DNA of 50,804 nt, counting the filler, from Jimgerdemannia flammicorona (Eukaryota): NCBI GenBank assembly GCA_003990765.1. It is 2 parts of 2 records of this genome, joined end to end, with 100 filler letters (N's around TTAATTAATTAA, not from the genome) between each part and the next. Parts side by side here need not be neighbours in the genome. Positions count along the whole stretch, not along the records: positions 1 to 25,355 come from RBNJ01000842.1; 1 more part is not named here. One strand, given 5' to 3'. Below, piece after piece: positions 1,421 through 43,020 of the stretch; position 1 is the first letter of the stretch, and every line of letters starts with the position of its first letter. Made by a program: the position numbers and the translations under genes. The notes beneath the pieces are model-generated. The model saw only the letters and a list, made by a program, of their open reading frames with translations. It was not told the DNA's origin and made no database searches.

Positions 1421-1437
1421 ACTCGTTCAGAGCACTA

Positions 1438-4400
1438 GTCTTGTAGCAGCAGATGATTTCTCAGTATAGGAAATCAGCTATAGAGAGGGCATTGGCTTCT
1501 TATAATGCTCCTGCCTCTATCCATTTGGTGAAGAGGTCTACAATAACTATAATATAGTGGTTTCCTGATAGTGTTACTGGTAGTAGTCCAATGATATCCA
1601 TTGCAATGTGGTGGAAGGAGATAGGCTCAATTCTTGATAATCTGGGTACCTGGTCTTGCTGATCTTGTTTCTGTTTTTGGCACTTGTCACACCCTTTGAC
1701 AAATTGGTGCAGGTCTTCTTCCATCTTGGGCCACCACATGGTTCTTCTTACCTTGTCATATGTATTGGTTCCTCCTAAGTATCCTTGCTCGTGTACTTCC
1801 TTCATTACTTGATACTTCTTGTGTTCAGGTATTACTAGCTTTCCTCCTTTTCTGAATATAGTGTTGTCTAATTCAAACTGTTTCCATGTCCGGTTGATGA
1901 TGGTGATTGTCCAGGGTTCAAAGTGGCTGGGCATCTTCTGTTGCTCAAGGTAGCTGATTAATCCATAGTATAGCTCCTTATTCATGTTGAATAGTCTTGA
2001 TGGGGATATTTCGGGGTGTCCTTGAGAGTGCATCAGTATTGGTATTGGTCTTTCCTGGGTAGTGCTTGACAGTACAGTCATATTCTTACAGCCTATAGAT
2101 TCATCTGGCATATATTCCTTTGGGGTTCAGAGTGTGGAATAGCCAGGCAAGAGTGGAATGGTCTGTTTGAATGGTGAAGTGTTTTCCAGCTAGGTAGTAG
2201 TGGAACTTGTCTACTGCCCAAACTACTGCTAAGCATTCAAGCTTGCATGACTCGTAGTTCTGTTCCACTCTGCGGGTACCTCAGCTTGCATAGGAGATGA
2301 CATATTCATGTCTATCTTTCTTCTGAGCTAAGACTGCTCCAAGTCCTATAATACTCACATCTGTCTACAGGATGAATTCTAGGCTCCAGTCTGGTCTTCT
2401 GAAGATGGGTGCTTGGGTCAACCTGGTCTTGAGTTTATTGAAGGTTTCTTGGTGCTCCTTGGTCCATTCGAATTTGGTCTCCTTCTTCAGTAGCTCATAG
2501 ATAGGTACTGTAATGTTGGAGTATCCTTTGATGAATCTTCTGTAGTAGCTGGCCAGTCCAAGGAAGGCATGGACTTCTGTGGTTGTTCTGGGTCTTGGAT
2601 AGGCTGCAACAGCCTCGATCTTCATGGGGTCTGTGTGGATTCCGGTCTGGTTGATGAGGTGTCCTAGGTAGGCAATTTCCTGAGCTGTAAACTTGCATTT
2701 CTTGGGCTTAATGTAGAGGACATGCTCCTTGAGCCTCTTGAGGGCTAGCTGTATGTGATTGATATGTTCCCATGCAGTGTTGCTGAAGATGATCACATCA
2801 TCAACATAGACAAAGAGCCATTTTCCAATCTCGGTGCTGAAGACTCTGTTCATCATTCACTGGAAACTTGCTGGGGCATTGCACATTCCAAATGGCATTC
2901 GCAGATAGATATAGGTGGCATCAGGTGTAATGAAGGCTGATTTCTCACTGGCATCTTGAGTGAGACCAAACTGATGGAAGCCTGAGAACAGATTCAAGAT
3001 GGTGTAGTATTTGGCTTCACTTCCAAGAGTGGTAAGGATTTCTTGAATATTTGGCAAGGGCTGCTTATCCTTCTTAGTGATGGCATTGAGTTTCCTGTAG
3101 TCAATGTAGAGTCTTGGTGCAAACTCTCCAGACTTGCGTCCTTTCTTTGGGGCTAGGACAATGGGTGAGGCCCAGGGGCTGATAGCTTGCTTGATGATTC
3201 CAGCTTCTTCCATTTCCTTGAGTTCTGCTTGCAGCTATTCTCTGTAGGCAGGTGGTATAGGTCTGGCTTTCTGGTAGATGAGCTTGGTATCACCAGTGAC
3301 AACTTCGTAGTAGTACTTGGGTTCTTGATTGTGGATATCCCTAAAGTCTGTAGCAAGTACTCCTTCATTCTGGTGCAGGATCTTGAGAAGTTGTTCCTCC
3401 AGGGGAAAGTTTTCTCCAATGGTATATGTGTGCTTATTCTGGTCCTTGTCTTTCTTATGCTCAAGTTTGGTAATCTTGGTGGCAACATAGACTTCTCTTC
3501 CAGTAGATCCAAAGCCTTGTTCTCCTCTCTTGGTCTTGATAAGTTCAATGGCTTCTATGATCTTGGGCTTCTTGACTTCATGGATCAACATCTGGCCAAT
3601 CCTGTCATGCTTCTTGACTTCAAAGGGGGTGGTGTGGTTGTGATTTCTGACTATGAGGAAGATCTCACCAATGTAATCAGGGTCAATTACTCCTCCTTCA
3701 ACTGAGATTTTGCTTTTGGCCAGACTGCTCCTGGTCTTGATAATTCCAACATGGTTTTCTGGTAACTTGACTCCAATTCCAGTGCCAAGTAGGGTGGTGG
3801 TCTGTGGTTCAAGGGTAGCATCTTGAATGCTGGCAAGGTCTATTTCTATGGCTCCTTTAGTCTTGTATTCTGGGATCTTAGCTTCGGAGTGAAACTTCTT
3901 GACCTTGAGGGTGATGTCTGATTCTTGTTCCTCCTCATTGTCACTATCAGCTTGAAGCTCTGGAGGCTGGTCATCTTCTTTAGCTTTCCTTTTTGCTTCA
4001 GCAGCTTCTTGCTCATATTTCTGTTGACAGATTTTCCTGACTTCACTGATACAGGACCAGCAGTCATTTAGGTATTCAGAGCAGTACATTCTAGTACCAT
4101 GGGGGCATCTTCCTTGAGGGGTATAGCCATCAATGATCTTGTTGTACTACTGCTCATCTGTGAGCTTGGGTGTCTTGTTCTTGTTCTTGTTCACTAAGTG
4201 CATGAAGGCCTCTGTGTCCTCTTCATTTCCTTTCTCCATATCTAGTAGGACTCCTTTGTGGACATTGATAGAGACTCATACCTTTCTTCCTCTGTAGTTG
4301 ATTGGTATCTTCTGGGCATTGAGGTCAATGATGGCCTTGGTCTTGTGAAGCCATTGGTTGTCAATAAAGATGTCATAGTTGGTGGCACTTGTAACAATCA

Positions 4401-6003
4401 CATCTACTGGAATGGTAGCTCCTCCTATCTTGATGGGGACTTCTCAGATTTTGCCAAGGGGGGTAGCTCATATACTATCTGCTGTGATATAGACCATCTT
4501 GGTAGACTCTTCAATGTCCCAACCTAGGTGGTCAATTGCCTTCTTGCTCATGAGGCATCCTCCAGTACCAGTATCAATAATGGTATCAAAGATACAATCT
4601 TCAATCTGACATGGGGTATAGGCTGATGTCTTGCACTGGTCTTTGGATTCTTCACCTGAGTTCTTGGATTCTTCCTGTGCATTGTGAGCTTCTACAATCT
4701 TATACTCTTGATTCTTGGCAGTAGTTGCAAGTTCTACTCTCAATTACTGTCTGAAGGTAGGGACTTCAGCTAGCTGTCCAAAAGTGGTATTGACCTTCTG
4801 TTCCTTGAGGTCCTTGTAGATGTCATACTGGTGGATCTTGGTCTTGCACAGCTTCTGTTCCTTCTTGCTATCACTTTCTCCTGAGACTGGAGTAATGCCT
4901 TCAATAATTTAGTGGGCAGCTTCATCTAACTCCATGTCTTGATCAATCTCCTTAGATTGAGTCTTGCTTTGAATAGTGATAGCTGGGGTCTTCTTTGGTC
5001 TTCTAACTGGCTTGCTGTTACTCTTCTTGTCATAGGGCTTGGATCGGGTTCTGGTACCTTCAGTAGCAGGGTAGAATTCAAGCTTCTCATAGTATTCTTC
5101 ATCATCAGCATCACCGATCTCCTTTATGACTACTGCATTGGTTTGTTCTCTGGTTCTGCTAGTATTGCTTGGTTGGGCTTTGCATCTTGTTTCAGTCATG
5201 CAACTCTTTGCATAGTAGCCTTCTTCTCCACATCTGAAGCATGTGATATTGTATTCTTCTGTAGTAGCTGCAAATCTCTGTACTGGTCTCCTGTTAGTGC
5301 TTCAGACTTCTCTAACAACATCACCAAGGTGTGCAGTCATCTCGGCGAACTGCTTGGCAAGTTCCTCCACTGGGTCAGCTTTGGCTATCTTGGGGGTAGG
5401 TGAGGTTGGTTGTCTGTTTACAACTGTGGTGGGTATGATACTAGTTGGCTTTGATGACTCCATCTTGATGTCAGTTATTTTCTCTATTGAGTGTTTGGCA
5501 GGGTGTCTGGCAGTCCAATATCTCTATGCAAAGACCACTTTCTGATCAAGGGTCAGCATAGCTGGAGTAGATTGGATTGCTAGGGCAATTTTATGGTGAA
5601 CTTCTTTGAGGAAAGTTGAATCTGCTATTTGTTCCTTGAGGCAGTCATCATAGCCAGCCAAGATAATCTGGTGGCAAATTCAGGTATAGAATGAGTTGAG
5701 ATCTTTACTAAGTCTCTGGCAGATAGTATTGAGTTGATCCTTGAGAGCTTGCTTGATCTCTTTGGTATAATATGTTGTTCTGAGGAAGACCTTCATGTTG
5801 GCAAGTTTGGCTGCACCAGTATCAGCAATGGTGGCTGCATTAAACTTGTCTCTAGTAGGTCTTCTGAGGCTGACTGATAGAAGGGCCAATTGAGCATCCA
5901 CACCAAGGGCTTGTATGGTGGTGAATTGTTCAAAGTCTTCAATGAAGGTTAGGATTGACTCTTCAGTAGTATATTCATAGAATGTGGGGAGATGCATTTC
6001 CAT
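1438..6003 (-). pseudogene. E1 gag-pol polyprotein with premature stops
   Basis: Gag MHLPTF..FIEDFE; zinc knuckle CFRCGEEGYYAKSC (~5200-5245); protease IIDTGTGG (~4555-4580); RT ISPWASP/DYRKLN/MPFGMCNAPASFQ/YVDD; RNaseH LECLAVVWAV; IN HEQG..CDKC and IAMDIIG..VDLFTKW. Confidence 0.92.
3499..3909 (-). CDS. dUTPase domain in E1 pol, between protease and RT (open frame)
   Basis: Trimeric dUTPase motifs: GAIEIDL, KTRSSLA, GGVIDPDYIGEI, DRIGQM, RGEQGFGSTG. Confidence 0.93.
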
Positions 6004-6120
6004 CTTGTCTTGAATTCTTGCAGAGGTGACTCTTGTAGTCAGGGTAGTTATTGTGGGGGTTGTTCGTTTTTCAGCTTGAAAGTGAGGGATTCATGAATCA
6101 CTAGCCAATGGGCACCAAGT

Positions 6121-7824
6121 TGTCATGTAGTGGTCACTAAGTCCTTTAAATATGCCAGATTCTCTTCAAGGTGTATCTCTTAGACTAACTCAAGTTTATT
6201 ATATGTAAGCAAGTTCTTATTGGAGTGCCTTCTCAAGGTCTTATAGTCCTCAAACTTCTTATCTTTAACTGTCTTATTATCTCTTAGATTTCTTGCAAGG
6301 AAGTGTGTATAAGTGAAACTGGAACTGACTTTATTTCAGAGGAAATAAGAGGGGTATTTATACAAAATATAATTCAATGGTTGCTAAGATATAAAGCTAA
6401 ATATAAATTCCAATAACTACTAAGTTCCAGAGTTGATACTGATGGTTGTACAGGTTCAGAATACTGGTATTATCTAGTGTCACATAGTGCTGAAACAATT
6501 TTGCATCACCTCAGAATACTGGTGCTGATATTATTCAGTGTTATATGAGAATACTGGTGCTGGCATTATCCAGTATAATAAAGAACTTAGAGCAGAAAGT
6601 TCAGGACCATGGGGGCTTCATCCTCATCATCATCATTACTAAAGGAGATGATATCTATGAACTCGTCATGTAGATTGCACATTTCGCATATATTGCATGA
6701 GATGATATCATTGCCAATGATGTCATCATGCTCGGCTATGGCAGGGAAATTGGGAACAAGGAGATCTGGAGCTCTCCAGTCTATAAGGTTCTCTTCCACA
6801 AAATAGGGAACAAATGTGGGGTCTTGGGGAGGTCTAACCTAGATGCTTGGGCCTTAGAATACTGAGATCAATCCTTGCAGGAATTGGTCTGGGTTGTCCT
6901 GAAGGATAGGATACCAGAAGTCTTCTACTTCTTCACTGTTGAGGGTGATAGTGGACTGGGCTTCTGTAGCCACCCTGGCTTCTAGTGTATTGATATGGCA
7001 GGATGACAGGTCTCTGAAGTCTGAGACTCTAACATACTCCAAGTTGGGGATTGACTATAGTGCATGCCTGAAGATCTGATGGATCTTCTTAGCTGTCCTC
7101 ATTTTGCATATATCCATGGGAGTGGTATCTTGTAGCTCTTGGGTACTGGCCTGTGGGAACTCCTGACAGAGGAGGTTTCTTATTTTGTACTCCTGCTATA
7201 TTTGGAGACATTCAGTAGCAATGGTGATCCTTGTTTATATTTTGTGGCAGTAGAGAATAAAGTGATAAGGGTCTGCAGTACCCAGATTGACACTAGGAGT
7301 CCTTCTTGAGCAGATACCCATGGCTCTTCTGATGTTTTGGAACATTCTTTCCTCAACTGAGATACCTTGGTAATTTCTTGACCTTGAGGTTTGGCAGGTA
7401 GCAGGCATTTCATTTGTGGTAAGTCTTTGAGCTATTTTGGAATTGGTGGTTCTTGTTGGTTGCTGCTACTGTGGTTCCTTGATCCTTCTTTTATATTCTT
7501 CAAGATGCTTATACTGTGGTCACAATAACTCACAGTTGATCATCATTGCTCATCTCATATACTATATGATCTTCTTGTGCTCTGATCTAGTGACTTATAA
7601 GGAAAGGCTGTCTCCTGTGCTGATGTCATCATTCTGGAGTCACAATTACAATACTAAACTAGTACAGAGGCTAGTGTGACTACTATAATATTACTGGCTG
7701 AAGAGAGCTGAAATTAGTGCAAAATCATTATGATCTTACTAATATTCTTATATTTTCTAGCATATAACCTTACTGGTGACATGAATCCAATGATGTCAGC
7801 TTGGTGATGTCATCATTTGTGACA
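6121..7824 (-). repeat. E1 5' LTR, long (~1.7 kb)
   Basis: Inverted termini TGTCA/TGACA; TATAAATACCCC (6362-6351) followed by AATAAA (6335-6330); three AGAATACTGGT repeats at ~6459-6575; PBS 3 nt after the LTR end. The partner LTR is outside the window, so the 7824 boundary is unconfirmed. Confidence 0.65.
6587..7558 (-). pseudogene. Decayed ~320-aa accessory ORF upstream of the TATA box in the E1 LTR region; function unknown
   Basis: ORFs 6587-6799 and 6854-7042 share a frame, and the reading extends to ~7558 through a few stops and one frameshift: ...RTAKKIHQIFRHAL*SIPNLEYVRVSDFRDLSS..., ending in an acidic tail with CNICEMC. Confidence 0.6.
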
Positions 7825-8163
7825 TTGTAATGTATTTTCATTATAGGCAGTCCTATTAGAGACTTTGGAGAACTTGTCTAAGAACTAGAAGATCTTATTA
7901 CACAAGCTTAAAATTGTACAGTCAGATACCCTACAGTAGTCTCACTAAGCTCACTTATAGAACCTTTATCACCAGCTCTTACAGAACTAAAAGCAGCTCC
8001 TTCAAGAATACTTAGGCTCATTTCACTTTGCCCAAGGTCCAGAACTCCATTCTCAAGATACTCAAGCACCCCCATTTCCAGTAATAGTTCAGAAAGTGAA
8101 TCAGAGTCAGAATCTGAATCAGAATCCAGACCAAAACCAGAATCAGAAGAAAGTGATGACAAA

Positions 8164-9434
8164 ATGGCCACCTTATTGCCAATCTTTACAGGATAACCAG
8201 AGGAAGACTCTAGAGAATTCCTTGATAGAATTGAAGGAATTGCAGCTCTGAGAAATCTCTCAGATGAAAGAAAAATCACTATCTACAAGGCTCAGCTCAG
8301 AGAACCAGCCAGAGGAATTTTCTACTAAACAACAAATAACCCCTACTCAGAACTGATAGTACAAATATAAGCAACAGCATCCTATGAGCTGAAGTATGTA
8401 GCCATAGTCCACTAGCTCATTGAAAAATATGTAGAAAATGAAACCCACTACAAGGTTCAAGAATCCATCATAGAGATGAAGGTAAATCTTAGAGAATTAC
8501 CCAGAGCCTTCTTTATAAAAATCCAGAAGAGAATGCATATAGCCAGATTCAATGCCACCAACTAAGATATCATAGGTCTAATGATCTTTATGAATGAGAT
8601 TCCCCTGAACATTGCCCAGCATGTCTGCACTCTAGACATCAGAAGGTCTGAAGAATAAGTAGATATAGTCTAAGAATTCTTTGATGTCAGACAAGAAACT
8701 CTCTGGAGTGATTATGATAAGAAGGATGATAAGGAAGACATCTTAGTCAAAGTCCTATAGGGACTCCTTCAAGGATAAGAGAGATCTGAAGAAAGAAGGC
8801 CAGCCAAGAAAGGAAAGAAGGACAGAAGCAAAATCTAAGACCTCAGTTCCAAGTTGGACTGATTGGTTAAATAGATTGAAAAACTCACCATATATGAAAA
8901 TCAGAGTTATTAAGATAATAAAGGATATCTACCTCAGAGGAGCCAAGATTATCCACTTAGAGATATATAACAGGAGCTATCAGCAGGAAGAAAGAAGATA
9001 CTCTGTCTGAGATAGAGCTCAAGTTCAATGCTTTCACTGTGGATAATTCAGATACTATCTACTAAATGTGACAACAAAAGAAGTGACCAAAGGGATTTAG
9101 AACTACTAAATTGAAGGAATGAAACCTCAGTACAAGAAGGCTGAAGCTTATCCTGTTGAAAACTTTGAAGAAGAAAGCAATAGTAAAGACTATAGTAACC
9201 TAGACTTGTATCCAGCCAAAGTTACTATCCAGAAAACAGTTTACCTAGTAGAAAAAAGGAAGAGACCTATAGGAAGACCATCCAGAAATATCAGCAGAAG
9301 AATTATCCAAGAAGAAGACAAAGAACATGAAGAGAAGCAAGTGGAAACACCTCTCTGAACTCCCTTACCTTTTGTTCTTAAGATAAATGAGCTGCTACCA
9401 GAGAATGAAGAAATAGAACAAGAAGAACAGGAAC
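8164..9434 (+). pseudogene. E2 gag
   Basis: MATLLPIFTG*PEEDSREFLDRIEGIAALRN...; decayed zinc knuckle QCFHCG at ~9026-9070. Confidence 0.8.
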
Positions 9435-9887
9435 TATAACAATTTCACAGTCATATTTAGTCTTAGTACATTTTTGCATCTTTTAGTTAGTCTTTTCTTA
9501 TCATTTCTTAAATATTCTACTATATTCCACCACTTTTACTTGCTTAAAAACCTTCTCTTAGTGCCCAAATACTACTAGAATATTTTTGTCTTTCCTTGAC
9601 ATCAAGTATCTTGTCTTAGCTAATTATGGAACCTTTTGGAACATTGTAGAATAGCATTAGTCAGCTTTACCAAGAACCTATTTCTTGGCATTTCTCTTTA
9701 TTTTCAAGATCCTTCTGGATCTTTCTTTCAGATTATATATAAATATTCTTGTTCTCTGCCTGAATAAAGCTCAGAATATTTTTCTCTCAGAAATTCTTCA
9801 ACCTTTAAGTATCTCTTTGAGCTATTTTAGGCCAACCAGAACTTCCAGATTTAGCTGCTTTCTCTTAAAAAAACTAGAACTGTTACA
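9435..9887 (+). repeat. E3 5' LTR
   Basis: TATAAC (from TGTAAC)...TGTTACA; contains TATAAATA and AATAAA; aligns end to end with 15062-15526. Confidence 0.95.
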
Positions 9888-9977
9888 CTTGATAGTAGTG
9901 GTGTCATTACATCTTACTTTATTAAGAAATCTCACACAAATTTGGAAACCAGTCACAACTAGTCATATAAATCTGAA

Positions 9978-12900
9978 ATGAGCCATGAAGAGTCAGCCTA
10001 TCAGCTAGACCCCTCTGTTACAGAAGAAGCAAGAGAACTGCAGCTTAGTATAGAGGATATGATCAATACTATGACCCACCAAATTCAAGAACTTTAAGTA
10101 CAACTAGAACAGCAGAAAACAAGAACTGTGAGTACATCATATTCTACTATAGTATTAGTCAGTTTCAAGTCACTCAAGCCAGATACCTTCAACAGTCATC
10201 AAGGAGGACTATCTACAGATGTATGGATCTTCTAATTAGACTAATACTTGGAGCTTACAAGAATGGAAGAAGATATGTAAATCTAATTTGCTGCTATACT
10301 TTTTTGAGAGAATGCAGCCATTTGGTAGTACAATTATATCATAATTATATCTATGTACTTATATATATGAATCAGAGATTGGGAAGCTTTCAAGAGAGCC
10401 CTTCATAGGCAGTTCAAGCCTGCTAATACTACCAAACTAGCCAGAGATAAGCTAGCAAACATCAAGCAACTCAAGTCTGTGCAAAGCTATAATATATAAT
10501 TCCTGTCAATCCTACTTGAACTACTAGTGATAGTGGAGAATAAAAAGATAGACTGCTATATCTAAGACCTGAAAGAAAACACATGAGTCAAGGTTGAGCT
10601 AGAAGAGCCACAAAATGAAGCTATGAGGATTACTAATAGGTTTGATGATATTACCTTTGGCAACTGCTTTGAACCAGAATACTGTAAGAAGAACTACTTC
10701 AAGAATCACTACAAGAACTAACCAAGGATAGTTGGCCTGATACCAATGGATTTAGACACTATGAACAAAAAGAACACCAAGCTCACCTCTAAAGAAAAAG
10801 ACTGTCTGAAGAAATCTGAGCCTGTTTCTTCTGTTATCAAATAGGATATATTGCAACCAAATATCTTAAGAAAACTAGTGAATTCTCAAGACCAGTCACC
10901 ATATTGTCTAAGAATATATCTGTCAACCCCACCATCAGTTAACCTGAGCTCAAGATCAAGAAGCTCATCCAAAGGCCCAGGCCCCTCAATATCAAACAGA
11001 AGGAGCTATTGGTCTTGATCTATACTTAGTCAAATAAGTCACTATTCCAGTTAAGGGCTGAACTCTGGTGTCTACTGGAATTGCAGTTCAATATCCTGAA
11101 GGACATTATGCTAGAATTGCATCATGATCAGGACTCAGTATCAAATATCATTTAGATGTAAGCACTAGTGTCATTAATCCAGACTTTCAAGGATAAGTTC
11201 AAGTTCTGCTTATCAACTAGAAGGATCAAGACTACACAGTTAAGAAAGGAGACTGAGTTGTATAAATGATCCTAGAAAAAGCCACTTAACTCAAGATTAC
11301 AGAAGTCCAAGAACTCTCTGAAACCAAATGAGATCAAAAAGATTTTGGCAGCACTGATCAAGCAGCAAGTCTTAGTGAAAATCATGCTCAAGCTATATTT
11401 ATTTTCAAAGGTCTAGTTAAAGGAAAAGAAGTTCAAGTACTCATAGACAGTGGAGCTATAGAGAACTTCATCAATCAGAATCTCATCAAAAGCCTCAAGA
11501 TTCTTATCAAGCCTATACTCAAGAATAATAGTATAGTCACTGCAGATGGTACTCTACACTTCATTGAGTCAATTGCTGCCAAACTATTCATCAAGATCCA
11601 GAAATATTAGAAATGGGTAGACTTTGAAATTGCATTACTAGGAGATCATGATCTGATCTTAGGAAAATCCTGGCTTATAAAACATAATCTAGACATTGAT
11701 TGATATAAGAATGAAGTCACCCTACTCTAAGATAGAGCTAATATCACTATCAAGACAGACAAGACCATGAGCAAGACTCAGATTGCAACACTGTTAGCTA
11801 TACAGTACAAGAGAGCACTCAAGAAGATAATGTATACCTTTATTGTAATGGTCTGTCTCAAGAAACAAGACAAGAGACTATCAGTCAATAAAAGTATTAA
11901 GTTACTGCTAGAAGAATTCAAGGATGTCTTTCCAGATAAGTTACCTGGTCTACCACCTATACAAGAAGTTGATCATGAAATCAAACTGACCCCAGAAGCT
12001 GTAGCACCTAAGAAATATATATACTGCATATCACTACTTGAAATTGAAGTAGTTAAGAAGGAACTAGAAGAACTACTTGCATGAGGAGCTATCCAGCCAA
12101 GCAAATATCCTTATGGCTCACCAGTCTTATTCATTAAGAAAAAGTATGGTACCCTGCAAATGTGTATAGACTATCATATACTCAACAAACTCACTATCAA
12201 GAACTACTATCTACTACCCTTGATTGATCAAATCTTTGATGCTCTCAAGAATGTCAAGTACTTCACTAAGTTAGACCTTATGTCAGAATACTACCAGATT
12301 CAAATCAAGTCAGAAGACATTCCTAAGACTGTATTTATAACCCCCTTTGGACTCTACAAATTCCTGGTCTTAGCATTTGGTCTTACCAATATATCCACCA
12401 TATTCTAGACCCTAATGAACAAGATATTTAAAGACCAACTATTTATTTTCCTGTTGGTATATATTGATGATATCCTGATCTTTAGTGTAACTAAAGAAGA
12501 ATACTTCAAATATATTTGAATAGTCCTGGAGATCCTACAAAAATACAAGCTTTATGCTAAGCTCAAGAAGTACAAATTCTTCAAGGAATAAGTCAAATAC
12601 CTTGGCCACATTATCTCTATACAAGGAATTCAAGTAGACCTATACAAGATAGGAGTAATTGAAGAATGGCCCATTCTGTCAAATCTCACAGAACTCTGAT
12701 CCTTCCTTAGTCTAGCTGGCTACTACTGCTACTTTGTCAGAAACTTCTCTGACATTACCAAGCCACTGACTAATCTCATGAGAAAGGCTCTGCACTCAGA
12801 CCACTGTACCCTATATCTGGGACCTCTTCTGTCAACAAGCCTTTCAAGAACTCAAGAACCACCTGATCCATGCTCTAGTTCTGTATAATGTAGATCAAGA

Positions 12901-14760
12901 CCTAAAATTTATAGTCATTACTAATATATTGAATTTTGCCATTAGAGCAGTCCTGTTATAAGATAATGGCAAAGAATATCATCCTATTACTTTTGAGTCC
13001 CACAAGTTGGCCCTAGCTGAACAAAAGCTAGCCACTCACAAGAAGGAACTACTGACAATAATATATACACTAGACTACTGACAATACTATTTAGAAGATA
13101 TTGAGTTTGATATTATTACTGACCATCAATCTCTTAAGTATATTAATACCCAATCTACTTTATTATGTCTACAACCCAAGTGGAGTCTCAAGCTTCAAAC
13201 CTTTAATCTGATAATCATCTACAAGCCTGACAAGACACTTATAGTACCAGATGCCTTATCAAAATGCCCAGATCTTGCCACAATCATGCAAGTTACCTTG
13301 GTATCAGAATTCCTAAACCAAATCAGACAAGTTTACAAAGAAGACATAGTTGCTACTAGAGTTTTCTCAAATGAGCTCAAGGATATATATACTGTTGAGA
13401 ACAACCTGATCTATTATCAAGATCAAGTCTACCTATCTGAAAACATGAACCTATGCTATAAGATTTTGTAAGAACACCATGACTCTCCTCTTGTCAGTCA
13501 TCTGGGAATTGAGAAGACTGTCAAGAACATTCAATACTGCTACTATTGACCAAGCATAGTCAAGGAAATCAAGAACTATATTGACAGCTGTGATCTATGT
13601 TAGCACAATAAGTCTACCAACCAAGTACCAGCCAGTTTGCTACAACTACTGCCAAATTCTACTAAGAAATTTGAGCAAGTTATTATGGACTTTATAACTC
13701 AACTACTACAAACTAAATCTGGTGCTGATACTATTATCATATTCATTGACTGCCTGATCAAGACCATGGTTGCTGAATCAACTACTACTAATACTACTAT
13801 ACCCAAAATTACAAGAATCTTCTTTAAGTCCATCTTCCATCACTATGGCCTACCATGAGTAATTGTCAGTAATTATGACTCTAAGTTCACTATTCACTTT
13901 TGACAAACTCTCTTCAAGTCCCTGGGAATCCAATTGGCTATATCTACTATCTTTCACCCACAAACTGATAGACAAACTAAGCACATGAACAGAACTCTAG
14001 AACAAATACTTAGAAACTATATTTCTTATAAGCAAGATGATTGGAACCACTATCTGACTTATATGGAGTTTGTATATAACAATACCATCCAATCATCTAC
14101 TAGTCTTTCTTCTTTCTAGTTACTCTATGGTCAAGATCCCAAGACCCCTACAAGTCTATTCTCTTTCAAGAAAAGCAGTTAAATATAAGTCTCTACTACC
14201 AAGAACCTTACAGACAAAATGGATGAACTACTTAAGATTATTACTGTGAATCTTCAGAAGACTCAACAGCATCAAGCCAAGTATACTGATAAGAAATGCC
14301 ATAATATTACTTATACTGTTGGAGATCAAGTCCTACTATCTACCAAAAACCTCAAGATATAATCTCAAGTCAATCACCCTTCAAACAAGTTCCAACCTAA
14401 GTATATTGGATCCTTCAAGATCACTGAACAAGTCTCTGCATCCTCCTACTACCTCAAGCTACTTGAAACTATAAGAGTATACCCAGTCTTTCATATGTCA
14501 CACCTCAAGACCTGGAACCAGTCACCACCCTACTCTGGTCAAATTCCTAAGTCTTTTGTCCCTATGATTATTGAAGACCATATTGAGTATAAAGCTGAGA
14601 AAATTCTTAACAAATGAATCTGCTACTGCTATTCTGAATACCTAGTCAAGTGGATGAGTTACTCTAAATATAATACTACCTAGGAACCACTGGTCAATCT
14701 CAAGAACTCTCAAGATCTAGTTCAAGACTTCAAGGCAAAATGTATTGCTCAATCTCTGTA
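9978..14760 (+). pseudogene. E3 gag-pol with C-terminal chromodomain
   Basis: Gag KPDTF; knuckle CFFCYQIGYIA (~10823); PR LIDSGA (11441); RT CIDYHILN..YIDD; IN HPQTDRQTK; chromodomain YKAEKILNK..EYLVKWMSY..T*EPLVNL (14585-14740). Confidence 0.92.
10946..11358 (+). pseudogene. E3 dUTPase domain between nucleocapsid and protease
   Basis: ELKIKKL..QTEGAIGLDLY..STGIAVQYPEGHYARIAS*SGLS..VINPDFQG*VQVLLIN..KKGD*VV*MI..DFGSTD. All five motifs are recognisable, and the stops fit CGA>TGA or CAA>TAA changes. Confidence 0.92.
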
Positions 14761-15061
14761 GTGACTTCCTTAAATTATCGACAACCTATGGCAATAACTG
14801 TATCTTATACATTGGAAGTTTACTTTGGGACCCCAGAATTAGCAGAATATTTAATAAACAAGAAGTCCACTGAAATGAAGCTATTAGCTGAGTTTGAACC
14901 CCTCCTAGTTGATTAGTCTAGTAATAGGTCCTCTGCTCTATATGAGGATGACCAATCTCTGTTAATGCATTGATATAAGTTTGAGAAATTTTGGTTAAGT
15001 ATATTTAGTCTTGTGTTACCTAAGAACTCAATGAGGATATTGGTTTTTAAGAAGAGAGAGA

Positions 15062-15526
15062 TATAACAATTTCACAGTCATATTTAGTCTTAGTATATTT
15101 TTGCATCTTTTAGTTAATCTCTTCTTATTATTTCTTAAACATTCTACTATGTTCTGCCACCTTCTACTTGCTTAGAAATCTTCTCTCAGTGCCCAGACAC
15201 CACTAGAACATTCTTATCTTTTCTTGGTACTAAGTATCTTATCTTAGCTAGTTATAGAACCTTTCAGAATATTATAGAATAGTATTAGTCAGCTTTGCTA
15301 AGAATCTATTTCTTGGTATTTCTCTTTCTTTCCAAGATCCTTCTGGATCTTTCTTTCAGATCATGTATAAATATCCTTGTTCTTTACCTGAATAAAGCTC
15401 AAAATATTTTTCTCTCAAAAATTCTTCAAGAATACTTAAATCTTTAAGTATCTCTTTGAGCTACTTTAGGCCAATCAGAACTTTCAGATTTAGCTGCTTT
15501 CTCTTAAAGAAACTAAAACTATTACA
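15062..15526 (+). repeat. E3 3' LTR
   Basis: Direct repeat of 9435-9887 with many transitions and a ~12-bp indel. Confidence 0.95.
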
Positions 15527-15531
15527 GAAAC

Positions 15532-18500
15532 CTACTGTCCCAAAGCTCAAGAAGAAGTATACCTCAAAGACTATACCCAGAGACATCTACAATAAAGTCT
15601 GGCAGAAGATTCAAAAAACTAAGATAAAAGTCTCTCTTCTATAGTTCCTATAACTGATACCAGCCAGAGTCCAAAACAAATCACTAGATCTAGCACTGGC
15701 CAAGTTCCAATCCCACAATAAGAGCCAGCTTCCATTTCTAACCAAGCTGCAGAAAGACATGTCAGCACTTATCTATATGGAGAAATTGGAGGATAAAAAG
15801 TAAAAATTCTTATAGATATAGGAGCAGCTGTCTGTATTATTGTCAAATGATTCCTGGATACCCTCCAATGGCCCATTGATGGACCATCTAACCTTAGCAT
15901 CATAGTAGTAGATGGAGCCCAAACCCAACCCCTTGGAGAAGTATGAAACATTACTATCTCTCTTAGATACATTTAGTTCTCTATCCTGAAAGCTATTATT
16001 ACTGAAGCTGTCACCTATAACATGATCCTTGGTACTAACTGAATGAAGGAAATGAATGCAGTTATCAATATTGGTCAACAAGTACTCAAGTTTGACTACT
16101 GAGACAAGAAGTATAGAGTTAAGGTGACCAGTTATGAGCAATTGAAGAAGAAGAAAAAGATAACTATTTAGGAGGAATATGCTAGTAGTGAAGAATCTAC
16201 TACAGAAGAGAAGAAAGAATCCAAAGATGGAAATAATCTCAGACTTAATCCCTGAATCAACCTGGTGAATTATAGGTCAGAAGATAATATATGGGCCAAG
16301 AACACTATCTCCATTACCATTGGAGCCATTATAGGAGAAATCAAAGAATGCCCTACCCTATCTGCCTCAAGAGATATAAGTGTCCCAAGCACTCCTCCAG
16401 GATTATTGGGTTAAGAAATTCAACTGGCACAGTCTGCCCCAAGTGTAGAAAAAAGAAAAAGAAATGCAAATATGTCCCAGAGACACCTGCAGCTGAAGCT
16501 GCAGAAGTATAGGCAATTTGAGAACAAGAATCATCTGAGGAAGAAGAAGCTCCTAACTAAAAAGTTCCTGAACAGAAAGCATCTGAAGAAAAAGAGGTCT
16601 CTGAACTTATTCTCTAGGATGACTCTTACTAAACACTACCTGAAGATAATGATCCTTGGAATATAGAAGAAGGACCCAGCACAATCCCCATTATTCCTAA
16701 GAAAGAAACTCACCAAGAAAGGGCTTTTCAGCTAGGAAGATATCTACACCAAATAGTCTTCCACTCTCTTCAAAACTATTGCTATTAGTGTCATCTATTA
16801 GACTAGTAAGAAAGACAGAAACCCCAAAGACCAGAAACCCCAACCATAGTTGCACAGTCAACTACCTTCCAAGAAGTTACCACTAGGTTGCAAAGTTGAT
16901 TTAGAGGACAAGGTCTCTTCATCCAAACAGAAGTATATCCCTTGTCTACTCTTCCCCCAACTTATGACCAAGATGGATACCAATTCCCAAGATAACAAGA
17001 AATCAACAACCAGGAACAGCATTTTTGAGTAATGGAATATTGTAACTATAGAAGATACTCAGACTGCTGAGACTGCAGACATCAGAAAATTCACCTCAGT
17101 CATGATATTGTAATATATACCTTGAAGAGAGAAGATAATAGAGGCCAGATCCAAAAAAGTCAGACCAAGAAGTCAGGAAGAAGGACCCTTAAGATCTATG
17201 ATTTAGAAGAAGATATTCTAGCTCTTATCAGATATACAATCTATCAAGAATGGGTAGAAGATGCCACCAACTTCATAGAAGCCCTAGACTCTATAGGAAG
17301 AAGAGAAATCAACTATCTCTAAGATCCCTCTACTGGAGCCAGATGGCCACACCTCAACCTCAGAGCCTGGAGGCTCTCTGCTAGTAGAGTCTTAGTCCAA
17401 GAACAGTCCAAACTCAGTAAGAATGTTATCTAGTATGCCCTTCTACATCCTAAGGCTAAACCCCTGACCAAAGCCTACCTAGAAGATATAAGATATGATC
17501 TTTACAGTCTGGAAGATGAATCCATCAAGCTTGGAAAAATATTCATGATCAAAACTGGACTAGTCATATAGCCACCCTAAGGAGCTTATATCCAACTGAT
17601 CTCAAGATCTAGACTTGCCAGATAAGGAATAACCATAGAAGGAGAAACCATTAATCCAGAATATAAAGGTAAAATCAAGGTCATCCTATATAATAGTAGA
17701 ACAGAAGATTATCTAAGCAGTCTTCATGAAGATCAAGACCCCACAATTACAAGAAGTCTCCAAACTGACTGAAGAAATAAGACAAGCCAAAGGATTTGGA
17801 AGTTCAGACAAAAAAAAAATACATCTCCTTCAAATCAACTACCTCAAGAGGAATGCCCCCCAGTAAGTACACTGCCAACTAGTCAAGCTATATAAAAACC
17901 TCATCCTGGAGCCTGGAGAACAAACCACCTTTGAAATCTTTGCACCATCTGATCTCAGAAACCTCTTCTTTGAATCCAATGAAGATATTCTATACTTGGA
18001 TATAGAAGGGCATACATTCTCTGATAAGATGAACCCAATATACTCTCAAGCAATCAACTAAAGTTGGAAAACTATCATCTTGCCAAAAGAAACCAATCAT
18101 AGAATATCTGGTGCCTTTTCTCAATTGAACTCATAGAGAAGTTTATGAACTAAACTTATTAGGAAATGGTAAAAGGTCCCATAAGAAAGGAAATACCCCT
18201 CTGTGATTCAGGAAACAGTGAAGCCTTCTATCAATATTGAAGAAGAATTGACACCCCAATAATGGCAACAACTAGTAGAACTCCTCAACAAATATCAAGA
18301 TATCTTTACTACTGATTATGGCAACCTGCCATACAACCCATCATATTATTACAGCATAAATATAGGAAATACAATACCTATCCAACAGAAATCCTATAGA
18401 ATACCCTATTATTTAAAAATATTCAAAAAGGAGTACATTCAAGAACTCTTAGACAATGGAGTCATCTGATCCTCCACCAGTCTCTGGGCCAGCTCTATAC

Positions 18501-20695
18501 TTATTGTACTAAAGAAAGGAGGATAGAGACTCTGTGTAGATTACAGAAAACTCAATTCAGTCACTGAAAAGGATACCTATTCTTTGCTCAGAATTGATGA
18601 CCTCTTGGATCAGTTACAAGATACTAGATACTTCAGCAGTATAGATCTTTTTGTAGGATTCTATAAGATCTCTATAGATCCAAAAGACATTCAAAAGACA
18701 GCCTTTCTTGCTCTAGAAAAACTGTTTGAATATCTCTGAATACCCTTTGGACTTTGCAATATGCTCTCCACCTTCCAGAGGATGATAAATTCAGTCTATG
18801 TTCTCTTGATCCACCACTGTCTGATTGTATACATGGATGATTCCAATATCTATTTAGCAAATTTTGAGGAAGACCTGTACTATTTAGAAGAATTCTTCAA
18901 GCTTATCTATAAGAACTACCTAAGACTCAATGCCAAGAAATGCTATTTTGGAAAACAGAAACTTGAATTCCTAGATTTATAGTTTTGAAAGAAGAAATCC
19001 ATACAGATTCAAAAAAAAATCAAGAAGATCAACAATTGGTCAGTACCCAAGACCCTGAAGAAAATATTATTATTTTTGATGCTAGTATCCTACTATAAAA
19101 AATTTATCAAGGACTTTTCCCAGATTGCTGCCCCAATCAGAGTCCTTCTTAAGAAAGAATTATCTTATAAATAGACAGAATTACAAGAGAAAGCTTAAAG
19201 AACTCAAGAACTGTATGACCACAGCACCAATTCTTGTATATTCTAATTTACAGAAGTTATTCATCTTATATACAGATACTTCCAAAGATGACCTAGGAGT
19301 AGTTCTAGCCCAAGAAGGATCTGACCAATAACACTATGTAATAGCTTATATAAGCTAAGCTACTAATCAGCAACAGATGAACTATGGTAGTACCAAACTA
19401 GAATACTTTACAGTTATATGAGCAGTTATCCTATTCAAGCATTACCTCATCAAAAAAAGGTTTACCCTAATCACAGATCATGTAGCCCTCAAATAGCTAT
19501 TCAATTGCAAGAAATCTATTAAAATCTTAGTCCACTAGATTCTTATCCTTCAGGATTACAAGATCACTATCATCCAAAAAGCAGGAAAAGCTCACAACAA
19601 TGTTGATGTACTTTCCTATCAGCCCCAATAAACTAGAAGAAGGGCGTTCTGAGGAACTATATCCTAAAGGAAGCTCCTCAGACTGTCAAAATACAAGAAG
19701 ATCTTATCTGAAAAGAATATCAAAAAGCCCACCAAGAATAGGTAAATATAGAAGAGAAGTTATGAATAACACACCAACATTGGTCCAATCTCAGAGCACA
19801 AGTCTGGGATATACTCAAGAAATGTGGCATCTGCTAGAAGTATCAAGGAAGAAAGAACTACCAAGTACTACTGCAACCAATTGTACTATCAGACAACATC
19901 TTTTAGAGATGAAGAGTAGATGTAATTAGACCCCTACCAGTTATACTAAGAAAAAACAAGTATATTCTTATATTTGTAGAACATCTGACCAAGTGGCCCA
20001 AGACTTTTCCAATAGAAATCACAGATGTCTTAATTATTGTAGGCCTTCTCTATAGACTCACCCTCAGATATAGACCTCTAGAAGAACTCATCTCTGACCA
20101 AGGCACAGAATTCATCAATAATATAATTATAAGTTATATCCAAATTCACAAGATTCACCTCAAATGGACTACATTATATCACCCTCAGACTAATGGTATG
20201 ACAGAAAGAATGAATCAGATCATCAAGAAAGAACTTGCCTGAGTCAATTCTACCAACTGAGACCTTTGCTTATATGAGATTCTATGGGAAATTCAGAATA
20301 CTCTTGCTGCCTCTACTAAACAAAAGCCATTCAAAATAATGTTTGCTAAGAAAGTCAGAACTACTAACTATGAAAATCTCAGAGACCTCCTCCAGAAGGC
20401 AGAATAGTTATGTAATCAGGTCCAAGTTCAGATTACCAAAGCTCAAGAAAGATAAAAGAAGTACTATAACTAGAAACAGAAGGACCAGAAGATCAAGATT
20501 AGAGATTAAGTACTAGTTTGGAGAAGTATGATTGAGACAAACTTTGCTACCAAATTGGAGCCCAAATGAGAAGGACCTTATCTTGTATACAATATCAGAG
20601 GAACCAGTATCTATTTAAGAAGTATGGATGAATGAACCCTAAAGATACCAGTACACATCAATTGTCTCAAGATATACTTCTCTCCACATTATAAA
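15532..20695 (+). pseudogene. E2 pol (PR, Cys-rich region, dUTPase, RT, RNaseH, IN)
   Basis: PR KILIDIGAAV..MILGTN (15770-16100); RT LCVDYRKLN, PFGLCN..TFQR, YMDD (18830-18842); RNaseH LYTDTSKDDLGVVLAQ; IN core YHPQTNGMTERMNQ; C-terminal KLEPK*EGPY. Confidence 0.88.
17420..17810 (+). pseudogene. E2 dUTPase domain between PR and RT
   Basis: YDLYS..IKTGL..ISRSRLAR*GITIEGETINPEYKGKIKVILYN..RQAKGFGSSD; motif 4 is partly deleted. Confidence 0.85.
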
Positions 20696-20719
20696 TCAGA
20701 ACAACTACCTTCAGACTCT

Positions 20720-21165
20720 TGTCTTCAGCTCATTTCAATCACTGCCAATTTCTCTACCCCAATTTCAAGAAGTCAACAGGAATATCCTCTAGAGAATTCA
20801 GATTCATTAAGAGAATTTTGTCCTGACCAGATGATTGTTATAGGTCCATCAACTTTAGGCTCATTATGCAATTGGAGAATAATTGCAGAACCTCTCAGCC
20901 CCAGAACAAACATATATCAGAAATATCACAGGACTATTAAGAAGAGACATTACTGCTGCAGACAGGCTCTATACCCTTTATAAGCATAATCCTATAGCTC
21001 TGATGCAAGCACAATTCTCCTAGTATGATGTATGAGGAATGAACCAAGTCATCTATCTGAGCATCATCCATGCTGTCAAAATTCTATTCTCAGAAGAAAA
21101 AGATAATAAAGATAATGGAATAGGTATTTATGTAGAAGATACCTATCTATACTAGAATGATGACT
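20720..21165 (+). pseudogene. E2 accessory ORF remnant between integrase and the polypurine tract
   Basis: Frame reads RRDITAADRLYTLYKHNPIALMQAQFS*YDV*GMNQVIYLSIIHAVKILFSEEKD, which resembles the E1 LTR ORF motif. Confidence 0.5.
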
Positions 21166-21207
21166 AAAGGACAGTCTGAGGACAGATCATCCTTTAGTGG
21201 GGACTAA

Positions 21208-22512
21208 TGTGATAAATCAAAATGTACCACCCAAATTATAACTTAAATAGATGATATAAACACATAATATAGTAATCAGACACAGTAACCATTGCTGCAG
21301 AAAACTATATAAATAGCTAGAACTACCAGATAAGATATATCTGTACTGGACCTGCACACCTATGCTGAACCAGTATACTCACTATAGATAGCAATCTATA
21401 ATTAGCAATATAGTAATCAGATATGTAGCAACTACAATGTATAAAATACTCTAGAGATAAAAGTGAATAAACCTCAGTTCAAAATTCAAAGCAAAAGACA
21501 AGTCTGCCTACTATACTTCAAGAGGAACTCTATAGTCACTGCTAGGAGATTGTGAGCTTACTTTCTACTCCAGTCCACTTTCTGATACAAAGAAGAGTTT
21601 GTTACATTTTTTGATTTGCTTGCCAGATAAGTCTGAAGAAATCACCAAGTTTAAGGAAGAACTTCACTACTTTTTGAGTAATCTACTGCTTAAGGAATAA
21701 GCCACTACATTTTAGTCTACTTGCCAGATAAGCCTGAAGAGAAACCCACATTCCCAGAGAGTCTTAAGGAATCTTGCCATATATCAGTCTCTTGATGTAA
21801 CTTTACAGTAATATGTTTATGCAAATAAAGCCAGTCTTTGATATAACTTGCTAAGAATCTGTATTGTCTGATATTTCCAGAAGAACTCTACCAATTTAGA
21901 AAGAATCTGCAACATCTGAGTTATCTGAGTTATCTGAATTATCTGTATCATCTGAGTCATTTACCCATTTCTAGTAAGCTGTGTCAAATATTTACCACTC
22001 CTAGAAGAACTGCTAAGTTATTATTCCCAGTGAGCTGATTTAGAAGAATCTGTACCAATATAATTCCTAGTAAGCTAATTCAAGAAAATCTGTACCCAAA
22101 TTAAGTTATCCACCAAATCTACATAAGGAAACCATCAAATTGCCAGATTATTCTACATAAGGAATCCATTCACACTATATAAGATTGTTATGCAGAAATT
22201 ACATACTTTTGAAAACAAGACTATCACCTAGAAATTACATACTTTTGGAGATCATCATACTATACAGAGATTGCCTGTTACTCAAGAAGAAAAACTACTA
22301 AATTGCCATATATACAAATCACCACTATACCCAGAGAACCATCTCAATTAGGAAATTGATATATAAATCACTCATAGATATCCAGCTTAAACTATTATAC
22401 TACTAAATACCAAGAATATTTTATTGCTTTTAACAAAGTAACTGGGGGCTTAAGCCAAACTATACTAACCCCCAACCTTATAATTTGCCTCTATTGAGCT
22501 GGGCACATTATA
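21208..22512 (+). repeat. E2 3' LTR (~1.3 kb; right boundary approximate)
   Basis: Starts TGTGATA right after the purine tract; TATAAATAG ~21308; AATAAA ~21466; internal repeats (CTTGCCAGATAAG x2, ATCTGAGTT-type 9-mers at ~21914-21958). hAT-like sequence begins after CATTATA (22512). Confidence 0.55.
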
Positions 22513-24994: not shown

Positions 24995-25094
24995 GTAACT
25001 GCTAACTAAAATGCTATACTATATTAGGAATTAGATTCAGATACTATAATCAAATATCTATCTTCTGATTGTTATTTCTAATTTAGATCAACTA

Positions 25095-25355
25095 TTATAT
25101 TAGTTATAGAACCTTTTGAAATATTATAGTCATCTTTATTAAGAACTACTTTCTTGACTTTTCTATATATTTCTAAGATTCTTCTAGATCTTTCTTTCAG
25201 ATTTTATACAAATATTCTCTTTTTTTACTCAAATAAAGCTCAGAATATTTCTTTCAAAATTCCTTTAAGACTATTTAAACTTATGAGTATATACCTCTTT
25301 AAGTTACTTTAGGCTTACCAAAAACTTCTAGATTTAATTACTTTTTTTTTAAAAA
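25095..25355 (+). repeat. Diverged LTR related to the E3 LTRs, cut by the gap
   Basis: Shares collinear GATCTTTCTTTCAGA, AATAAAGCTCAGAATATTT, TTTAGGC and AGATTTA blocks with 9435-9887. Confidence 0.8.
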
Positions 25356-25455
25356 NNNNNNNNNNNNNNNNNNNNNNNNNNNNNNNNNNNNNNNNNNNNT
25401 TAATTAATTAANNNNNNNNNNNNNNNNNNNNNNNNNNNNNNNNNNNNNNNNNNNN
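25356..25455. other. Assembly gap: 44 N + TTAATTAATTAA + 44 N
   Basis: Six-frame-stop linker centred in a 100-base spacer; artificial. Adjacency across it is unproven. Confidence 0.97.
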
Positions 25456-25526
25456 TTTTTTTATAGTCACTCGGACTCATCCTTTATTACCCCATCTATC
25501 CTATAAAAGTACAGTGATCCCACCCC

Positions 25527-28500: not shown

Positions 28501-29159
28501 TCCACCTCCAACATCTTCCAGACATCAGCCCTCCAGCATTCTGCCATCAGAATCCAGTCAATCCTTGTACCTAAGCCATTCACCCAATACATGTAGACCC
28601 TGGAGTCACCCCATTGTATTCTACCCATATCCCCTAAGAAGCTCAGTCTCTCCACCTCCTCTCATACATCCAGGCCTCCACTTCTCCCTCCTGTACTCCT
28701 CCCACCATCAGTGTGGTCCAGATGCTGATCCTGAACCATATTAAAGTCCCCCCCAAGCACATTGACCCCTTCTGCTAAGAGAACACCCTCCTCCAGTAGC
28801 TCCTCAATCCATACAATCTACTCACCCCTAACTGCAGGGCAATAGTAAGAGCCAACCCTCACCGACTCCCACCCTGGCCACTGCCAATCTCCCCAGACCA
28901 AGTGGTCACCCTAGCTCCTGATTCCCTCCAAGTCACCTCTACCCTTCCTCACCAGAATTGCCACTTTTTCAAACCAAGCAGTAGCCCTGCCCCATTCCTT
29001 AGTCCACTTCACCTGATCATCCTCATCCTCACACTGAACATCCTGTAGTAAAAAGAGATCAGCCTCCAATCCCTTGAGCCAAGTAAAAATATTCTTATGC
29101 TGTCCAGAACCCTTCAACCCATTCACATTCAAAGAGAAAATGTTAGTTATACTGTTCAT
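25527..29159 (-). pseudogene. LINE A ORF2: APE endonuclease, RT, C-terminal CCHC
   Basis: IFSLNVNGL..LFLLQD, LGGDF, RIDW; RT LDQEKAYDWV, RRGVPQRDPLSPILY, AFADD, YLGI; CFDC..EHWLREC; ends ..PPRGIG*. Confidence 0.92.
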
Positions 29160-29190
29160 AAGGAATAATGTTAAAAAGTGATCCCATTCT

Positions 29191-42951: not shown

Positions 42952-42986
<35 letters not shown>

Positions 42987-43020
42987 TGACCAAAATAGCA
43001 GAATAATATTTCGGTACAGT

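Follow-up and report, generated by a model that had tools for sequence, protein, structure and literature searches.

Canonical repeat-induced point mutation (RIP), as found in Neurospora crassa and other Ascomycota, strikes CpA far above all other contexts, and its single events mutate one strand and thereby give tracts. Here we describe E3, a retrotransposon at positions 9435-15526 of a 50,804-nucleotide stretch of fungal DNA (hereafter the window, meaning that whole stretch), and compare its cytosine-to-thymine (C>T) changes with those left by described systems. E3, now a dead element, belongs to the genome of the root-associated fungus Jimgerdemannia flammicorona (Endogonales, Mucoromycota). 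An earlier note on this DNA had conjectured a Mucoromycota host, to be identified through MTR4, and this proved right: MTR4 exon 38733-39188 is 100% identical to the NCBI protein of J. flammicorona, and the next-best named full-length matches reach 89-91%.

Current surveys describe RIP signatures as absent from Mucoromycotina and as unique to ascomycetes or Dikarya (PMC8647823, PMC12543289, PMC11105155); the kingdom-wide screen among them finds RIP-like signatures unique to ascomycetes (PMC12543289). Chytrids are described as being without RIP (PMC6572847), and RID is reported from Ascomycota only (PMC13297926). Phycomyces, a member of Mucoromycotina, has DNMT1 and a Dim-2 homologue, no RID, and methylation in the order CG > CHH > CHG (PMC7862722, PMC13297926). 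In Zymoseptoria, Dim2 drives C>T changes in transposons during mitosis (PMC8016269). A review gives the genome of J. flammicorona as about 240 Mb, more than 77% of it repeats (PMC10386755). Our literature search, whose reach did not extend to the Chang 2019 genome paper, Bewick 2019 and supplements, returned no paper tying Endogonales or Jimgerdemannia to RIP, C-to-T mutation or cytosine methylation.

We confirm that transposons of a Mucoromycota fungus, on a CpG-depleted island, are hypermutated from C to T in a polarised manner and mostly outside CpG. This verdict is based on one clean pair of long terminal repeats (LTRs), one coding-region test and a family summary from one run. The pattern points to a cytosine mutator that is directed at transposons, in a group of fungi from which no such mutator is described so far.

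The twin long terminal repeats of E3

The two LTRs of E3 were aligned together with their flanks using MAFFT, and differences were counted over 465 columns. 402 columns are identical, 50 hold transitions (30 C/T, 20 A/G) and one holds a transversion (A/C); the remaining 12 gap columns represent two indels of 1 bp and 11 bp. The divergence of the pair is 11%. The earlier note had estimated by eye about 50 transitions against one transversion and two indels, which is exactly what the alignment gives. It had also reported a target-site duplication differing by one G>A, and the two copies, GGAAC and GAAAC, do match at four of five positions with G/A as the mismatch. At least 50 transitions among 51 substitutions would be expected with P = 2.8e-8 if two thirds of neutral changes are transitions and with P = 0.03 if 90% are. 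Other repeat pairs in the window, which are old, about 67-73% identical and not twin LTRs, display transition/transversion ratios (ts/tv) of 0.9-3.3.

E3 is a complete LTR retrotransposon, a Ty3/gypsy chromovirus carrying a dUTPase. It has LTRs, a 5-bp duplication, the domain order gag, protease, reverse transcriptase, RNase H, integrase, and a C-terminal chromodomain, which identifies it as a chromovirus; the dUTPase is an extra domain between gag and protease (Table 1). These domains were found by Pfam search after the internal region had been translated through, with X at stops. The catalytic core of the integrase is visible via homologues only, which have PF00665. In the gag part (9888-10970), 14 of 361 codons are stops. 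Two further stretches each keep a single frame without any frameshift, 10975-12616 with 16 stops in 547 codons and 12818-14737 with 13 stops in 640 codons, and this combination of many stops and unshifted frames indicates that these stretches were damaged by point mutation only.

E3 lies nested in an older gypsy element, E2, whose flanking parts (8000-9434 and 15527-21000) hold pieces of reverse transcriptase, RNase H and integrase. One contig of a run that we refer to as X1 joins position 9428 straight to 15526 and so skips 6097 bases, which correspond to E3 together with a single duplication copy. Such a contig is consistent with an E2 copy elsewhere whose site is empty, without the insertion.

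Direction and sequence context of the changes

Two LTRs alone cannot be polarised, and the third LTR copy of the window, which shares 73% identity with the E3 LTRs and is interrupted by an N run, has decayed too. We rejected this copy as an outgroup, as parallel C>T changes confound polarity (for example at a former CpG in columns 218-219). The coding region was therefore used to determine direction, over 10975-12616 and 12818-14737. From a query-anchored BLASTP pile-up of 223 homologues we retained those codon columns that cover at least 20 aligned homologues and show at least 85% agreement; polarity was called as the single-base change needed to get from a codon of the conserved residue to the E3 codon. 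E3 differs at 42 of 149 conserved columns. These comprise 11 C>T and 23 G>A changes, no T>C or A>G change, two transversions, one ambiguous case and five multi-step cases. Per non-synonymous opportunity the rates are 0.18 for C>T and 0.26 for G>A, compared with 0/63 and 0/71 for the reverse transitions (152 forward versus 134 reverse opportunities; Fisher's test, P = 9e-11). A version of the test based on a multiple protein alignment (MAFFT FFT-NS-2, 51 sequences) gave 36 forward changes, one reverse change and one transversion among 38 single-step changes in 12818-14737.

A blastn search of E3 against 80 related metagenome loci returned only two short matches of 64-66% identity. As these loci offer no outgroup at the DNA level, they were taken as a control of the method: 37 intact open reading frames (ORFs) of at least 400 codons each, from 45 of the 80 loci, were put through the same test. 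336 of 3946 conserved columns are changed in these ORFs, and the single-step changes comprise 76 forward transitions versus 112 of other kinds, a distribution that differs from that of E3 (P = 4e-10). The method leans slightly to G>A, not remotely to the degree seen in E3. The better-preserved neighbour E1 has 18 of 85 columns changed, 14 of them by a single step, and the changes include three forward transitions, one reverse transition and seven transversions; E1 thus displays no C>T bias of the E3 type. The E1a, E2b, E2c and E2e pile-ups had no column of at least 20 homologues, so that E2 is outside the test. The C>T direction presumed by the earlier note therefore holds, with 34 forward changes, no reverse change and two transversions at conserved codons, checked against intact relatives.

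As a separate observation, four of the metagenome gypsy ORFs (L021, L035, L043 and L045) have a CpG observed/expected ratio (o/e) of 0.23-0.40, a GC content of 0.39-0.42 and G>A-enriched changes at conserved columns, which hints at a like decay in other hosts.

Since the coding test justifies C>T polarity, the C/G state at each LTR difference was taken as ancestral, and contexts were counted in both LTRs and on both strands. Derived T/A states are then distributed as 23 in the 5' LTR and 27 in the 3' LTR, and about one E3 cytosine in six is converted, on both strands. CpG was mutated at 4 of 8 available sites (a rate of at least 0.5, as 0.5 is the maximum visible), CpA at 23 of 100 (0.23), CpC at 10 of 51 (0.20) and CpT at 13 of 166 (0.078). 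With the base before the cytosine included, ACA (11/30) and ACC (5/15) rank highest, and GCT (0/26) and CCT (0/20) were spared; with two bases after the cytosine, CAT reaches 11/26. A CHG preference was not seen in the LTRs (CHG 7/60 versus CHH 39/255). In the coding test the forward changes fall on CpA in 15 cases, CpG in 11, CpC in 6 and CpT in 2. Non-CpG sites thus account for 46 of 50 LTR changes and for 23 of 34 coding changes.

The non-CpG examples named in the earlier note (AGTACA/AGTATA, TTAGTC/TTAATC and AACC/AATC) were located at alignment columns 55, 76 and 138, and the few CA/TG pairs from CpG that it mentioned correspond to two adjacent pairs at columns 114-115 and 224-225. These pairs mark former CpGs. 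Its argument that CpG decay alone would not suffice is supported, with about four of 50 LTR changes traced to former CpGs, and the ancestral states in the coding region, which might have placed nearly all changes at CpG, do not do so. Decay of methylated CpG is accordingly not the source of most transitions. The 23 of 50 LTR changes in CpC and CpT contexts cannot derive from CpG.

Strand tracts were not observed in the LTRs: C>T and G>A changes are intermixed along each of them, forming 16 and 12 runs versus 12.0 and 14.0 in shuffles, a test that is weak evidence because many rounds would blur tracts. Nor was there the strong CpA preference of canonical RIP in the LTR rates or in the coding test. 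RIP indices are conventionally read with thresholds of at least 0.89 for TpA/ApT, at most 1.03 for (CpA+TpG)/(ApC+GpT) and above 0 for the composite. E3 has 1.05, 1.22 and -0.17, respectively, and the composite is positive in the 3' LTR only (+0.09). This shows that composite RIP indices fail where CpG decay and mutation at CpH (non-CpG) sites act together: CpG decay raises CpA+TpG, and CpA loss is thereby hidden from index-based screens. Such masking may be why index screens report nothing in Mucoromycotina. The label RIP-like used in the earlier note consequently stands for the near-exclusive C:G>T:A change in E3 repeats (34 forward, no reverse and two transversions in the coding test, 50:1 in the LTRs) and falls on three counts, namely the preference for CpA, the composite index and the tracts on one strand.

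The family of E3 was summarised from run X1, in which 1591 contigs lie on E3 at a likeness of at least 80%; the run is labelled metagenome, and its contigs may include more than one organism. These contigs define 848 transition places versus 58 transversion places (ts/tv about 15). At 436 transition places E3 has A/T where the others have G/C and at 412 the opposite holds, a balance as predicted if many copies undergo C>T decay independently. Of the 40 places with the best support, at which all contigs disagree with E3, E3 has T/A at 27 and C/G at 11, and two are transversions.

The transposon island and its surroundings

The 36.6 kb around E3 form a transposon island with sharp borders: CpG o/e is about 0 across it and about 1 outside. 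Positions 2200-37900 contain 59 CpGs versus 1328 expected, and 6734-25471 contain only two. The adjoining gene region serves as an internal control (Table 1); CpG o/e is 0.88 in the MTR4 introns and 1.02-1.09 in three spacers. CpG depletion is therefore confined to transposons and CpG is normal in unique DNA, the pattern expected where methylated CpG decays.

The elements of the island form a graded series. E1 and the first copies of a long interspersed nuclear element (LINE) have a GC content of 0.42-0.51, a CpG o/e of 0.07-0.10 and a CpA/TpG o/e of 1.28; within this class, E1 itself (GC 0.42, CpG o/e 0.07) retains long ORFs of 200-300 codons. For E3, E2 and the later LINE copies the respective values are 0.35-0.42, 0.00-0.01 and 1.02-1.09, with E3 at a GC content of 0.35, and a remnant at 22-25 kb is down to a GC content of 0.20-0.25 and a CpG o/e of 0.00. 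The series is consistent with a rapid loss of CpG and a slower loss of CpH thereafter, not with instant mutation on duplication.

The earlier note had called the process repeat-directed. For the CpG component this is directly seen, as its loss is restricted to the island. For the non-CpG component we infer a restriction to transposons from equilibrium GC: a spectrum of 34 forward and no reverse changes would lead to an equilibrium below roughly 10% GC, unique introns and spacers nearby are at 0.34-0.43, and only old transposon DNA is down at 0.20-0.25.

Table 1. Positions of E3, its parts and other features along the window.
Feature	Position	Strand	Basis or remark
Transposon island almost without CpG	1425..38037		E1 (minus strand), E2, E3 within E2, AT-rich remnant, LINE copies
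Target-site duplication, left copy, GGAAC	9430..9434	+	LTR and flank alignment
5' LTR of E3, 453 bp, TA...CA ends, without CpG	9435..9887	+	Repeat finding and alignment
gag (Ty3 capsid-like), frame 1	10269..10694	+	Pfam PF19259, E = 8e-6, below its curated cut-off
dUTPase domain within polyprotein	10975..11355	+	Pfam PF00692, E = 2.7e-24
Retroviral-type aspartyl protease	11386..11730	+	Pfam PF08284, E = 2.5e-10
Reverse transcriptase	12133..12615	+	Pfam PF00078, E = 5.8e-23
RNase H	12818..13204	+	Pfam PF17917, PF17919
Integrase: zinc-binding domain, catalytic core, Tf2-type SH3 domain	13451..14512	+	Pfam PF17921, PF24626
Chromodomain	14588..14737	+	Pfam PF00385, E = 6.5e-6
Polypurine tract AAGAAGAGAGAGA abutting the 3' LTR	15049..15061	+	Read from sequence
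3' LTR of E3, 465 bp, without CpG	15062..15526	+	Repeat finding and alignment
Target-site duplication, right copy, GAAAC	15527..15531	+	LTR and flank alignment
Partial third LTR copy	25101..25355	+	
Gene region, internal control	38038..50804		MTR4 helicase 38185-42605 and neighbours; CpG 685 versus 656 expected

A dUTPase between gag and protease is present in two different Ty3/gypsy elements of the window, E1 (3238-4146, minus strand) and E3 (10975-11355, plus strand), with PF00692 E-values of 3e-26 and 3e-24, respectively; the E1 domain also matches a dCTP deaminase-like family (PF22769, E = 7e-13). At the left border, the CpG-free zone begins abruptly at about 1425. Positions 1008-1424, which adjoin the truncated 3' end of E1, contain many CpGs spaced by 14 bases or multiples thereof at near-normal density, as well as a 161-bp direct repeat pair (1008-1166 and 1173-1333, 71% identical). 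At its right border the zone stops at 38038, only some 150 bp upstream of where MTR4 starts (start codon at 38185), so that a housekeeping gene promoter abuts the silenced island. The last part of the zone, 37000-38037, has a GC content of 0.31 and no recognised transposon domain.

The AT-rich stretch 22500-25355 (GC 0.20-0.25) lacks CpG, and its GpC is about twice as frequent as expected. Surviving cytosines favour G-C-T, with an o/e of 1.8 for the 5'-G and 1.63 for the 3'-T. This bias might represent what the mutator finally leaves behind, or an effect of tandem repeats; it agrees with the LTR rates and carries little weight, as the stretch has tandem repeats. Next to it, N runs of 44 bases each (25356-25399 and 25412-25455) with 12 bases between them most likely represent a scaffold join, and the adjacency of the two island halves accordingly rests on scaffolding.

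LINE-like copies occupy 25456-37000 on the minus strand, with a reverse transcriptase at 26458-27477 and an endonuclease trace at 28914-29204. Three stretches (28404-30785, 31305-33119 and 34180-36922) are mutually 67-69% identical. The region has an extreme GC skew, -0.33 to -0.57 on the plus strand, and later copies are more decayed (GC 0.42 versus 0.51). At 67-69% identity the copies display a ts/tv of 1.9-2.6, an asymmetric direction of change (256 versus 90) and the same order of contexts as E3. We rejected them as a clean test of the mutator, as they are too old and contain too many transversions.

Explanations and comparison with known systems

Dense CpG and non-CpG methylation of transposons followed by deamination is in our view the best reading of these data, and we would trust it about as far as we would doubt it. 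Of the two alternatives that the earlier note had offered, a mutator or non-CpG methylation, the latter is thus favoured. E3 inserted into an older gypsy element of the J. flammicorona genome and has since decayed almost only by C:G>T:A changes on both strands, with almost no transversions and few indels. According to the methylation model, the island would be densely cytosine-methylated heterochromatin, in which CpG would be methylated most heavily by a maintenance enzyme of the DNMT1/DNMT5 type and CpH by an enzyme of the Dim-2 type that prefers CpA and CpC over CpT. Methylated cytosines would be lost via deamination, spontaneous or enzyme-promoted; CpG would be the first to vanish, and entirely so, before CpA and CpC follow, and the loss would accumulate with time. 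The predominance of CpH contexts among the C>T changes is what an all-context enzyme of the Dim-2 type would be expected to leave in a transposon region, and the DNMT1 and Dim-2 set of Phycomyces represents a plausible toolkit by analogy.

Several points weigh against this model. In the LTRs, the averaged C>T load of a cytosine (50/328) is about 140-fold the transversion load of a site (1/906), an estimate that rests on a single transversion. For spontaneous deamination this is a high figure, except under dense non-CpG methylation. The clean post-insertion measurement consists of one LTR pair only. Non-CG methylation reported in fungi so far is low, 0.3-0.5% in Phycomyces mycelium (PMC7862722), and the Dim2 mutator of Zymoseptoria acts almost exclusively at CpA and spares CpG (PMC8016269), unlike the E3 spectrum.

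The height of this load, as extreme relative to transversions as in RIP, speaks at the same time for a true RIP analogue: a homology- or repeat-sensing, premeiotic or parasexual process that actively deaminates duplicated DNA with a context range of its own (CpG, CpA, CpC > CpT) and independently of RID. Such a process would likewise yield almost pure C:G>T:A changes with nearly no transversions or indels, would hit both LTR copies about equally and would affect all family copies. The younger E1 has a TpA/ApT of 0.80 and a (CpA+TpG)/(ApC+GpT) of 1.50, compared with a higher 1.05 and a lower 1.22 in E3, and index screens would miss the process since CpG decay inflates CpA+TpG. Nevertheless we regard a RIP analogue as unlikely, if with some real chance of being correct. 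CpA is not dominant, with CpC about equal and CpG higher; the composite index is negative (-0.17) and the runs test gave no strand tracts. The long ORFs kept by E1 and a genome reported at 240 Mb and 77% repeats (PMC10386755) argue against an efficient duplication-triggered mutator, and reports of RID come from Ascomycota only (PMC13297926). An AID/APOBEC-like cytidine deaminase, or poor uracil repair in heterochromatin, acting on unmethylated cytosines of silent transposons would also account for pure C>T change in several non-CpG contexts and for the mild 5'-A preference (ACA and ACC over GCT), and the dUTPases of the elements themselves hint that uracil in DNA matters in this host. We give this idea slim prospects. 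APOBEC-type editing of minus-strand complementary DNA would produce G>A on one strand only and LTRs that are identical at integration, whereas here both strands are changed (30 C/T and 20 A/G differences) and the LTRs differ; moreover, total CpG erasure with sharp island borders is a mark of methylation.

It is improbable that E3 merely decayed neutrally under a strong genome-wide GC-to-AT transition bias, with CpG methylation alone being targeted at transposons. The GC content of the MTR4 introns (0.37) is indeed near that of E3. However, the expected equilibrium below about 10% is at odds with the 0.34-0.43 of unique spacers and introns and the 0.20-0.25 of the oldest transposon remnant, the ts/tv of 50 in the LTRs and about 15 in the family is far above that of other repeat pairs in the window, and the coding test, applied in the same way to intact relatives, reveals no such bias in them. 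In a highly repetitive genome with many diverged family copies and with N runs at 25356-25455, the LTRs might stem from different copies through assembly chimerism, inter-element recombination or gene conversion. This is very improbable given duplications that match at four of five positions with a mismatch that is itself G/A, an empty-site contig that skips exactly the element and one duplication, and a divergence of 11% by which the LTRs are easily told apart in assembly; even if it were true, the internal polarity test and the family-wide ratio of 848:58 would stand. Passive decay of methylated CpG alone would explain the complete erasure of CpG in the island, yet it is refuted by the context counts, with two CA/TG pairs (about four of 50 changes) in the LTRs, 23 of 50 LTR changes in CpC or CpT and 23 of 34 polarised coding changes outside CpG, and we give it almost no credence.

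We speculate that Endogonales, and perhaps other Mucoromycota, might possess a repeat-directed, cytosine-deaminating defence that is RID-independent, targets CpG, CpA and CpC and spares CpT and GpC; we put this forward as a tentative and rather doubtful proposal. If it were true, RIP-type defence would predate the split of Dikarya and Mucoromycota or would have arisen twice. The E3 signature contrasts with surveys that place RIP signatures only in ascomycetes or Dikarya, and it offers a concrete case for how early-diverging fungi disable transposons yet tolerate huge repeat loads. From it one would further expect either dense methylation outside CpG or a new mutator, in a lineage for which adenine methylation is regarded as the dominant kind.

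With RIP, E3 shares the near-exclusive C:G>T:A change in repeats on both strands, many stops without frameshifts and the drift towards AT. Unlike RIP, its rates are highest at CpG, about equal at CpA and CpC and lowest at CpT, its composite index is negative, strand tracts are missing, a less-mutated copy with long ORFs coexists and the host is outside Dikarya, in a part of the fungi from which RID is not known. Outside ascomycetes, the TpCpG hypermutation of Pucciniomycotina resembles E3 as a RIP-like C>T change in transposons for which no RID homologue was found, but that signature is confined to a CpG-containing trinucleotide and E3 changes are mostly outside CpG (PMC3318451). For Zoophthora radicans (Zoopagomycota) there is a hint of RIP-like mutation outside Dikarya that consists of a composition index only (PMC11105155), as opposed to the twin-LTR comparison and polarised codon test in E3, whose composite index is negative. 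CpG decay as in Basidiomycota with DNMT1/DNMT5 or alongside the CG methylation of Rhizophagus irregularis (PMC8647823) parallels the island-restricted CpG loss and the TpG/CpA excess in younger elements, and does not cover the 46 of 50 non-CpG changes of E3. We think that the most similar mechanism, by analogy, is the Dim2-dependent mitotic mutator of Zymoseptoria tritici, which is methyltransferase-linked, restricted to transposons and causes non-CpG C>T changes that accumulate with time without meiosis (PMC8016269). In that species CpG is spared and CpA takes more than 98% of the changes, whereas E3 has lost its CpGs and is changed as frequently at CpC as at CpA.

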